Of a DNA stretch of 64,000 bases, positions 40,889-42,760 are shown piece by piece. The notes under the pieces were generated by a model. The model was not told where the DNA came from. It made no database searches and saw only the letters and a list, made by a program, of their open reading frames with translations. Made by a program: the position numbers and the translations under genes. The stretch is from Bdellovibrionota bacterium (GTDB taxonomy: Bacteria; Bdellovibrionota_C; UBA2361; JBGSMV01), in assembly GCA_044356455.1 (NCBI GenBank), contig JBIKWF010000005.1, positions 1,917 to 65,916 of the forward strand, read 5' to 3'. The first letter of the stretch is position 1. The number at the start of each line of letters is the position of its first letter.

Positions 40889-42760
40889 GTGTCAGTTTCG
40901 CTGCTGAGGAACATACTTTCTGCAAAAGCGCAGTCCGGCCTGAGCCAGGCTACGGATGCGCTTACTCGCAGCCTCGAGCGCCTGTCGTCTGGGTCCCGAA
41001 TTAACCGCGCCTCTGATGATAGTGCTGGACAGTCTGTGGTCTCCGGGCTTACCCGTGACGCGCGAGTATATGGGCGCGCAATCCTAAATTTAAACGATGG
41101 CGTGAGTGCGCTTAGCATTGCAGATGCAAGCTTGGGGCAACTCTCGGATGTGACGACGCGGCTTAAGGAGCTTGCCACGCAGTCAGCAAATGGGAGCTTG
41201 AGCCGCACGCAGCGCAACTCTCTTGACGCTGAAGCCGATAAACTCGTTGAGGAATTTAATCGCTTGGTCGCAACCACGCAGTTTAACAGCGTTGGTTTGC
41301 TTGATGGAACGACGCAAAACATGCGTCTTCAGGGCGGGTACGGAGCAAACGGCGGTATTTCTTTTGGCCTTGTTGATAAACTTTCGAGAACCTCAGCGTC
41401 CGGAAGTTTCCGCTCGGGGGTTACGCACACTTCCTCAAGCGGCGCGCAGAGTGACGCGGTGTATGCGGACTTTGACGGAGATGGTGTTCCTGATCGAGTA
41501 AGCGTGGGCGTAGGCGGCGGCCCTTCGGGGATGTGGTTTTTTAAAGGAAATGGGGACGGAACTTTCGGTGCGGGGACACAGAACAGTATTGGCGTTCAAT
41601 TCTCTTCTGTGGCGTCTGGAGATTTTGATGGGGACGGAGATCTTGATCTCATCGCGAGTGGCACCAGTTCGATGCACCTCTATATCAACGGTGGTTCTGG
41701 GACATTTTCGGGAACCTCCTTCCCAGGCATCGTCAGCACCAATGCCCTCTCCGTGGGAGATTTCAATGGAGATGGGAGAGCTGACGTTGCGGTCCTGCGC
41801 TCCGCGTCCGCAGGGATTAATATCTACCAAGGAACGGCAGGAGGGGGACTCTCACTTTCGCAAAATATAGCAGGTAACTATACCGCATCAAAGGCAATCG
41901 ACATAGATGGCGATGGTGATAGCGATCTCGTTACGGTCGATTCTACCGGGAATGTGCGCTCAGCGCTTAACAATGGGGCGGGCACACTTGCACTAGGGAG
42001 CATCCTCTTTTCTGTCGGTTCCTCTGGTTCGGATATCGACATTTCGGATGTTACTGATGACGGTGTGCTCGATATCATAGTCACGGAGGGGTTTGAGCGA
42101 AGTTTGTATGCCGGAGATGGAGCTCAGGGCTATACGAGTCGAGGATCACTTTCTTCGAGCCTCTCCTTTTATTCGGATACGCAGCTGGTGGATTTTAATG
42201 GTGACGGAAATCTTGATATTCTCTCTCAAAACGACTTTGGTGCGAGTCTTTCGATTCAGTTCGGTGATGGATATGGAAACTTTGGCTCGGAAATTCTGGT
42301 GGAGACTAGTTCGTCGAACACGGAGGTGCTCGATCTCAATGGAGACGGAATTCTTGATTTGGTTTCCATCGACTCCTCGGGAAATACGGTTAGTAATTTC
42401 GGCAATGCAACGAATACTGCCTCAATTGGTCAGCTTGACCTCAACACCGCCTCCGATGCTTTGGGCGCTCTTTCAACAATCGATGGAATTCTCAACCGCA
42501 TCAATCAACAGAGAGGAGCCTTCGGTGCTCAGCAAAGCCGCGTGCAAAATGCGCTGCAGGTTCTGCATGCCATGAGAGACAACGATTTTGCAGCCGCTGC
42601 TCGCATTTCGGATGTTGATGTGGCGATGGAAAGTGCGCAGCTGGCGAAGAGCCAAATACTTCAGCAGGTCAGCAGCGCAATTCTTGCGCAAGCGAACCAG
42701 GCTCCTGCCTTGGCGCTTACTCTGCTCTCCGGTACGGCGGCAAGTTCGGGCCGCAGGTAA
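40889..42760 (+). CDS. Flagellin with a seven-repeat FG-GAP/VCBS insertion in the variable region (copy 1)
   Basis: The N-terminus reads 'LERLSSGSRINRASDDSAGQSV...LKELATQSANGS' and the C-terminus reads 'QQRGAFGAQQSRVQNAL...ILQQVSSAILAQANQAPALALTLL'. Seven DxDxDG-type repeats lie between them. It has a GTG start with AAGGA upstream. Confidence 0.85.
   Translation: MSVSLLRNILSAKAQSGLSQATDALTRSLERLSSGSRINRASDDSAGQSVVSGLTRDARVYGRAILNLNDGVSALSIADASLGQLSDVTTRLKELATQSANGSLSRTQRNSLDAEADKLVEEFNRLVATTQFNSVGLLDGTTQNMRLQGGYGANGGISFGLVDKLSRTSASGSFRSGVTHTSSSGAQSDAVYADFDGDGVPDRVSVGVGGGPSGMWFFKGNGDGTFGAGTQNSIGVQFSSVASGDFDGDGDLDLIASGTSSMHLYINGGSGTFSGTSFPGIVSTNALSVGDFNGDGRADVAVLRSASAGINIYQGTAGGGLSLSQNIAGNYTASKAIDIDGDGDSDLVTVDSTGNVRSALNNGAGTLALGSILFSVGSSGSDIDISDVTDDGVLDIIVTEGFERSLYAGDGAQGYTSRGSLSSSLSFYSDTQLVDFNGDGNLDILSQNDFGASLSIQFGDGYGNFGSEILVETSSSNTEVLDLNGDGILDLVSIDSSGNTVSNFGNATNTASIGQLDLNTASDALGALSTIDGILNRINQQRGAFGAQQSRVQNALQVLHAMRDNDFAAAARISDVDVAMESAQLAKSQILQQVSSAILAQANQAPALALTLLSGTAASSGRR

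Follow-up and report, generated by a model that had tools for sequence, protein, structure and literature searches.

A flagellin with a predicted seven-bladed FG-GAP propeller as its outer domain, from a Bdellovibrionota-type lineage

Flagellin outer domains are the flagellum's contact with the outside, and few of the many folds predicted for them have been studied. Peptidase flagellins of the flagellinolysin type and giant flagellins carry functional or large outer domains. In an AlphaFold census, Fields et al. (2024, Nat Commun 15:9500, PMC11532411) sorted the outer domains of flagellins by structure, arriving at 682 clusters, with the peptidase flagellins (flagella_HEXXH) as cluster #15, and noted that an outer domain is displayed about 20,000 times per filament on a conserved polymerising core. 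One sentence of that study, based on models only, lists 'WD40-repeats in cluster #55', a domain which its authors suggest was co-opted from cellular proteins. Here we describe a gene in a 64,000-nucleotide (nt) stretch of contig JBIKWF010000005.1 (the whole stretch analysed, referred to below as the window). Its product, propeller flagellin copy 1, has a complete flagellin core interrupted by a predicted seven-bladed FG-GAP β-propeller.

Among canonical flagellins (FliC/FlaA), copy 1 is best compared with Vibrio cholerae FlaA (9n8g), and also with Salmonella FliC (1ucu, 9gnz), with which it shares a complete and colinear D0/D1 core. It departs from FlaA in having a 347-residue propeller exactly where FlaA has an outer region of ~112 residues, and from FliC in having the propeller in place of the D2/D3 domains. 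Like the flagellinolysin/flagella_HEXXH and giant flagellins, it joins a conserved polymerising core to a foreign globular domain, which by its sequence would be a non-enzymatic repeat propeller with Ca-type loops rather than a metallopeptidase. Cluster #55, by its published description, is similar in placing a β-propeller-type outer domain between flagellin D0/D1 termini, and may or may not be the same family. The insert itself resembles the integrin-alpha-type propellers of CRTAC1, ITFG2, PVL, PAL and AAL2 in its seven FG-GAP repeats, predicted seven-bladed fold and DxDxDGxxD-type loops, and differs from them in being embedded in a flagellin, at 12-20% identity, with a putative Ca motif in every blade. 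The sheathed filament of Bdellovibrio bacteriovorus, built from FliC1-6 (Iida et al. 2009, PMC2791853), comes from an organism of the same phylum-level lineage and also draws on several flagellin genes, some in tandem pairs. However, those flagellins are 29-31 kDa and lack a large outer domain (PMC2791853), whereas the propeller flagellins are ~63 kDa and come from uncultured lineages.

Copy 1 is a single uninterrupted open reading frame (ORF) with a GTG start. Its features, in window coordinates, are as follows.

40875-40883, + strand: Shine-Dalgarno-like site GAGAAGGAA, 5-7 nt ahead of the GTG start, by direct reading
40889-42760, + strand: propeller flagellin copy 1, complete coding sequence including the stop; 623 amino acids (aa), 63.4 kDa, pI 4.25, no Cys
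40889-41377, + strand: N-terminal D0/D1 core, aa 1-163 (Pfam Flagellin_N, FlaA alignment, AlphaFold2 secondary structure)
41378-42418, + strand: outer domain, aa 164-510, predicted seven-bladed FG-GAP/VCBS-type β-propeller (Pfam, motifs, AlphaFold2, Foldseek)
41468-41494, 41621-41647, 41759-41785 and 41900-41926, + strand: predicted Ca-type loops 1-4 (motif positions)
42047-42073, 42191-42217 and 42332-42358, + strand: predicted Ca-type loops 5-7 (motif positions)
42419-42757, + strand: C-terminal D1/D0 core, aa 511-623 (Pfam Flagellin_C, FlaA alignment), with one long helix at 521-619

Both ends of the protein are recognised as flagellin. Pfam places Flagellin_N (PF00669) at aa 7-141, with 99.1 bits against a cutoff of 26.6, and Flagellin_C (PF00700) at aa 529-613, with 60.3 bits against a cutoff of 23. 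In a colinear sequence alignment, aa 1-163 and 511-613 of copy 1 correspond to residues 1-163 and 276-378 of V. cholerae FlaA (9n8g). When the profile of the copy 1 family, described below, was compared with PDB sequences, solved filament flagellins matched at up to E = 7e-79 and the top 60 matches were all flagellins. Both core segments have a neutral net charge. The N-terminus, MSVSLLRNILSAKAQSGL, aligns to FlaA residues 1-18 and is helical in the AlphaFold2 model; copy 1 is thus predicted to have no cleavable signal peptide, because its N-terminus appears to be part of the ND0 helix and type III export segment. JGI names the protein 'flagellin-like hook-associated protein FlgL'. A FlgL identity was rejected on model scores, the best NCBIfam flagellin model reaching E = 4e-52 and the FlgL model TIGR02550 8.7e-17 (61.5 bits, under its cutoff of 127.2). 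The JGI label seems to be no more than a generic family name. No NCBIfam flagellin equivalog or subfamily cutoff is reached by copy 1, because those models expect a matching middle region.

Between these ends lie 347 aa (34.7 kDa) with 37 Asp, a net charge of -31, a pI of 4.05 and no Cys. Two Pfam repeat models score over their cutoffs here, FG-GAP_3 with 121.8 bits over eight stretches and FG-GAP with 68.2 bits over six. The motif D-x-[DNT]-x-[DN]-[GD]-x-x-D occurs seven times, from aa 194, 245, 291, 338, 387, 435 and 482 onwards, with 46-51 aa from one start to the next. A Ca-type motif is therefore present in seven of seven blades, that of blade 5 being the variant DVTDDGVLD. No WD40 family was found among the Pfam matches to copy 1 up to E = 1; by their sequence, the repeats are of the FG-GAP type and not WD40.

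An AlphaFold2 model of copy 1, built on a 67-sequence family alignment, had a mean predicted local distance difference test score (pLDDT) of 86.9 and a predicted template-modelling score (pTM) of 0.79. Its core comprises helices at 4-33, 41-100 and 106-129 (ND0/ND1), a D1 β-hairpin at 144-160 and the helix at 521-619 (CD1/CD0). About 29 β-strands, with pLDDT mostly 85-96, span aa 167-510, a number consistent with seven four-stranded blades, and the model is consistent with a closed seven-bladed propeller. In Foldseek searches of the PDB, the core matched cryo-electron microscopy (cryo-EM) filaments of Azotobacter (9n59), enterohaemorrhagic Escherichia coli H7 (7sn4), Salmonella (9gnz) and V. 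cholerae (9n8g) at E = 4.6e-15 to 1e-10, with a TMq of only 0.33-0.37 since the solved flagellins cover the core only. The middle region matched FG-GAP/integrin-like seven-bladed propellers with probability 1.0, at a root-mean-square deviation (rmsd) of 4.5-6.5 Å over 340-420 columns. Among these were CRTAC1 (9etn; 421 columns, rmsd 4.6 Å) and ITFG2 (9van_B; TMt 0.65); others were the fungal GlcNAc lectins PVL (2bwr), PAL (5mb4) and AAL2 (4tqm), and BBS9. No solved flagellin with a propeller outer domain like that of copy 1 was found in the PDB.

These results bear out the architectural part of a first-pass annotation made from the sequence alone, which had read the gene as a flagellin whose variable region is a complete FG-GAP/VCBS propeller. 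All eleven peptides that it quoted are present in the order given (aa 29, 92, 544 and 590, with the seven motifs at aa 192-480). The flagellin signatures that it saw at the two termini are the Pfam domains above, both over their cutoffs, and the seven regularly spaced Ca-type motifs and FG-GAP repeats that it placed between them were recovered by the motif scan and by Pfam. Two of the checks that it proposed agreed with it: profile hidden Markov models found Flagellin_N, FG-GAP and Flagellin_C in the expected order, and structure prediction gave a D0/D1 helical hairpin carrying the ~29 β-strands, with filaments and seven-bladed propellers as the Foldseek matches. Its label 'copy 1' implied a second copy, and a full-length paralog with 38% identity (tblastn) is indeed encoded 15 kb downstream.

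57642-59495, + strand: paralog copy 2, 617 aa, ATG start

Copy 2 has the same domains in Pfam (Flagellin_N at 120.8 bits, FG-GAP_3 and Flagellin_C), with six strict Ca-type motifs and one degenerate blade. Its AlphaFold2 model (pLDDT 87.2, pTM 0.80) also shows a D0/D1 hairpin and a propeller. Beyond the window, we searched 5.8 billion proteins grouped into 90%-identity clusters. At least 119 other clusters share the architecture, at 590-658 aa, 35-44% identity and 94-100% query cover; all 119 of those listed have Flagellin_N, FG-GAP and Flagellin_C, and the match at rank 120 still has E = 4e-87. They come from NCBI, ENA, JGI and Logan assemblies, including one 2.28-Mb chromosome. In the 67-member alignment, mean pairwise identity is 52.6% at the N-terminus, 49.1% at the C-terminus and 33.8% in the propeller, and the outer region ranges from 329 to 378 aa (median 355). 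Of the 67 proteins, 53 have the full set of seven motifs. The Asp and Gly residues of the Ca loops are invariant or at least 90% conserved, and the conserved scaffold motifs are 'GDxNGDGxLD' (the Ca loop) and 'LGNGDGTF'. Judged from the alignment, core and propeller are both shown to be under family-wide purifying constraint.

All family members with a name are metagenome-assembled genomes (MAGs) under the labels Bdellovibrionales, Bdellovibrionota or 'Deltaproteobacteria'. For the window's Tad ATPase, named relatives at 60-64% identity carry these labels and also Oligoflexia, and together these relatives place the window in a poorly sampled, uncultured Bdellovibrionota-type lineage; the best match of the ATPase overall has 81% identity. 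A scan of a genome collection with generic flagellin N-terminal motifs returned ordinary flagellins at 77 of 80 loci, with only L004-L006 being family members. Long matches in that scan were considered as other giant Bdellovibrionota flagellins and rejected; they are tandem short flagellins. One MAG, GCA_030431715.1, encodes four or more propeller flagellins (P0069, L004, and P0111 and P0113 in tandem) together with two tandem 287-aa core-only flagellins, a repertoire that is unusually large and heterogeneous.

GCA_030431715.1, flagellin loci: L004; L013 6001-7763; L086 10001-13649; L089 5001-6863

In a neighbour-joining tree, copy 1 and copy 2 group with different partners (P0102 and P0063), and other propeller-flagellin pairs on the same contig are sisters. 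Together, these placements suggest that propeller flagellins have been duplicated repeatedly.

The start of copy 1 deserves comment because the public gene call differs from ours. Identical DNA occurs in JGI metagenome 3300044855 (contig Ga0453711_008902, L084), with 0 mismatches to window positions 40033-43893. The call on that sequence (P0001; L084 1166-2728) begins at an internal TTG, window position 41198, and gives 520 aa; the first 103 aa are lost, and with them Flagellin_N. Support for the long form with the GTG start comes from the ribosome-binding site and from more than 100 full-length homologs. The P0001 start is a misannotation, and a census by name or by domain would overlook the architecture because of it.

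We also considered where the propeller came from. Giant FG-GAP proteins of 800-7400 aa (P0247-P0396) made up most of what a profile search of 1.84 billion representatives returned. Their repeated matches add up to over 1000 bits, and whole-propeller units (profile positions ~170-515) occur in them as many as 16 times. Given how common whole-propeller units are in these proteins, the flagellin appears, from sequence comparison, to have taken up a single whole copy of an extracellular propeller module that is common elsewhere, and the giant repeat proteins are likely relatives of the donor. Capture of a module fits the co-option scenario of Fields et al. (PMC11532411) for the peptidase, protease and 'WD40' clusters. 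A recent horizontal transfer of copy 1 itself was rejected, since the G+C content of the gene (0.532) equals that of the window (0.529).

The first-pass annotation knew of no described flagellin with this architecture. That holds for FG-GAP flagellins: full-text literature searches on flagellins in connection with FG-GAP, VCBS, β-propellers or Bdellovibrionota turned up no account of the architecture, and Fields et al. (PMC11532411) make no mention of FG-GAP, calcium or Bdellovibrio. It does not hold for propellers in general, in view of the 'WD40-repeats' of cluster #55. Thus, propeller outer domains are not wholly unreported; it is the FG-GAP/Ca identity, the lineage and the paralogy that are undescribed. 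The input of the published census was limited to UniProt entries named 'flagellin' (PMC11532411), and the NCBI names for family proteins are mostly 'VCBS/FG-GAP repeat-containing protein'. Because of such labels, and of calls with the wrong start, censuses by the name 'flagellin' may miss the propeller flagellins.

No gene neighbour is conserved across eight homolog loci. The idea that the gene has a partner of its own, for instance a chaperone or glycosyltransferase, was rejected on this ground. The lone exception to the absence of flagellar-type neighbours is a homolog (P0070, on L085) that lies 0.9 kb from a cluster of FHIPEP, FliF-family and sigma-factor genes. On sequence grounds this cluster may represent a reduced type III system and not an operon for flagella, because its short FliF-family protein looks more like the injectisome protein SctJ than FliF. 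Scans for terminators and sigma-70 promoters around copy 1 gave nothing meaningful. Apart from the two propeller flagellins, the window contains two-component systems, metal ABC transporters, several ORFs without a Pfam match, and the loci marked 'Window' in the list below.

L085 12758-18111: cluster beside P0070, with FHIPEP (625 aa), small ORFs, a YscJ/FliF-family protein (270 aa) and a sigma-70-family factor (259 aa)
Window 1564-9246, + strand: Tad/Flp pilus cluster, with a ParA/CpaE-like ATPase, RcpC/CpaB, a CpaF/TadA ATPase and two T2SSF proteins (TadB/TadC)
Window 30612-37439, - strand: four-gene cluster of DUF1302, DUF1329 (LolA-like), a BNR/YCF48-like propeller and an MMPL/RND-type transporter
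Window 47335-48789, - strand: ABC-3 metal-transporter permease fused to an iron-dependent-repressor C-terminal (metal-binding/dimerisation) domain

Some of these genes are worth recording in their own right. The Tad/Flp genes are followed by two ORFs without a Pfam match, a response-regulator gene and a hybrid histidine-kinase gene. The DUF1302/DUF1329/BNR/MMPL cluster is a conserved-looking module. The ABC-3 permease-repressor gene, an unusual transporter-regulator fusion, adjoins genes for another ABC-3 permease and an ATPase. Immediately upstream of copy 1, an ORF at 38804-40618 (+ strand) encodes 604 aa with no Pfam match and a strongly acidic Glu/Asp/Ser-rich tract; it was not seen beside copy 1 homologs at the loci examined. 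Copy 2 is flanked by three large ORFs without a Pfam match, at 55941-57353, 59532-61037 and 61170-62705.

We consider it likely that copy 1 is a filament-forming flagellin with a propeller as its outer domain. On the modelled structure and the repeats, a single complete seven-bladed FG-GAP propeller of the integrin-alpha type, with a Ca-type loop in each blade, would take the place of its surface-exposed outer region. The unfolded chain would be exported through the flagellar type III channel, as with other flagellins, and the subunits would polymerise via D0/D1. The acidic propeller would fold only outside the cytoplasm, where Ca2+ is available, because cytoplasmic Ca2+ would be too low for seven sites; RTX proteins, in which Ca2+ drives folding after export, are the analogy. 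The product would be an outer layer of ~35 kDa per subunit on all or part of the filament, with the propeller flagellin as one component of a multi-flagellin filament. This layer may then be a surface for interactions, a scaffold resembling lectins or adhesins, with variable loops that have diversified from paralog to paralog. As a whole, the combination of a filament flagellin, a propeller outer region and an interaction-surface layer is the explanation that we favour on balance, although with less assurance than its first part.

The interaction surface is the least supported step. The first-pass annotation had proposed a dense array of Ca-dependent ligand-binding propellers and thereby an adhesive or prey/host-binding flagellum, the part of its reading that is still a hypothesis. 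In its favour, the relatives of the module found by Foldseek and by the profile search are lectins and giant repeat proteins, and there are several divergent paralogs per genome with a conserved scaffold and variable loops. Ligand or surface binding as the layer's main role is accordingly a tentative proposal, nearer to doubtful than to probable. The fullest version, in which filaments or filament segments of uncultured Bdellovibrionota are coated with Ca2+-stabilised propellers for lectin- or adhesin-like recognition of prey or particles, is unlikely on present evidence.

Several observations weigh against this explanation or parts of it. The 64-kb window contains no other flagellar gene, so motility of the organism is unproven from the window. 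At the C-terminus of copy 1, a 10-residue tail, SGTAASSGRR (aa 614-623, nt 42728-42757), follows the conserved ...LALTLL. Family tails are 1-10 residues long, mostly 1-4, and that of copy 1, the longest among regular C-termini, is at the long extreme of the family at a point where CD0 lines the central channel. As to binding, no majority-consensus residues were found in the family alignment beyond the scaffold motifs, and thus no conserved ligand pocket is evident. Finally, in both B. bacteriovorus and Bacteriovorax the flagella are membrane-sheathed, with flagellins of 29-31 kDa (PMC2791853, PMC7175336). A sheath of the kind seen in cultured Bdellovibrionota would bury the propellers; if the present lineage is sheathed, they would face the sheath and not prey, and a structural or spacer role would be more likely.

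Promoter motifs give weak support to flagellar regulation at the level of the family. The sigma-28 consensus of E. coli is TAAA-N15-GCCGATAA. A composite TAAA-N15/16-GCCG[AT][TC] lies upstream of three of 11 family genes, a number reached in 0 of 5000 shuffles, and the -10 box alone lies upstream of five of the 11, copy 1 included (27 of 5000 shuffles reach that), for a pattern that was partly picked after seeing the data. The copy 1 box is given below.

40824-40831, + strand: possible sigma-28 (FliA)-type -10 box GCCGATCT, 65 nt upstream of the copy 1 start

There is no matching -35 TAAA ahead of this box. The box is not enriched in the window (four found, 3.45 expected), the composite pattern matches neither window copy within three mismatches, and copy 2 has only a loose sigma-28-like motif at -91. 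The case for a sigma-28 promoter is therefore weak for the window's own two copies, and this too weighs against the favoured explanation.

The alternative that survives best accepts copy 1 as a true filament flagellin and makes the propeller layer mechanical and not adhesive: it would thicken or stiffen the filament or set its waveform or, in a sheathed flagellum, occupy the space between filament core and membrane sheath as a spacer or contact layer. The flagella of cultured Bdellovibrionota are sheathed, with several flagellins shaping a tapered wave (PMC2791853, PMC7175336), and the best sequence matches of the copy 1 core are the sheathed V. cholerae flagellins. Structural sheaths formed by outer domains are documented as an aid to motility in viscous media (Kreutzberger 2022, PMC8931119). 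The conservation limited to scaffold residues and domain size also suits a mechanical layer. However, neither seven Ca-type loops nor at least four divergent paralogs per genome are obviously needed for such a role, and the module's relatives sit in giant repeat proteins and lectins. The studied B. bacteriovorus flagellins are only 29-31 kDa (PMC2791853), so a sheath does not require a propeller layer. We regard a purely mechanical layer as possible but rather unlikely.

A second alternative is that copy 1 derives from a flagellin and relies on the type III export signal of flagella, yet works outside the propulsive filament, either as a secreted or cell-surface binding protein, as with the cell-surface flagellin homolog of Sphingomonas A1, or as a minor component at the tip or a junction. 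The PDB matches do include a cell-surface flagellin homolog (3k8v), the gene stands alone without flagellar neighbours in the window or at most homolog loci, and the short core-only flagellins of GCA_030431715.1 could make the filament proper in that MAG. The atypically long C-terminal tail points the same way. However, stand-alone flagellin genes are common, and flagellin models far outscore the FlgL model on this protein. Moreover, D0/D1 is complete and is the most conserved part of the family (49-53% identity against 34% for the propeller), a pattern expected if polymerisation contacts are under selection. A role outside the filament is thus improbable, more so than a mechanical role within it.

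An artefact, whether a decaying pseudogene or a fusion of two genes through a frameshift or a chimeric contig, is effectively refuted: the truncated public call of 520 aa without Flagellin_N is its one support, against a single uninterrupted ORF with a ribosome-binding site, an identical independent JGI contig, a second paralog inside the same window, more than 100 full-length homologs across NCBI, ENA, JGI and Logan (a 2.28-Mb chromosome included) and confident AlphaFold2 models of both copies.

Thus, the propeller flagellin is real, conserved and structurally distinctive, and conceptually it lies inside the known diversity of flagellin outer domains. On the fullest version given above, which is unlikely, each coat would comprise tens of thousands of integrin-like propellers, the first β-propeller-decorated flagellar filament, and folding would be calcium-gated once the chain has left the type III channel, as in RTX proteins. 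If every subunit carries the propeller, the filament would be a new structural class for cryo-EM and a natural high-density display of a ~35-kDa binding scaffold, with relevance to flagellar display engineering. For the biology of a poorly known predatory phylum, such filaments would suggest that motility is coupled to the recognition of surfaces or prey.

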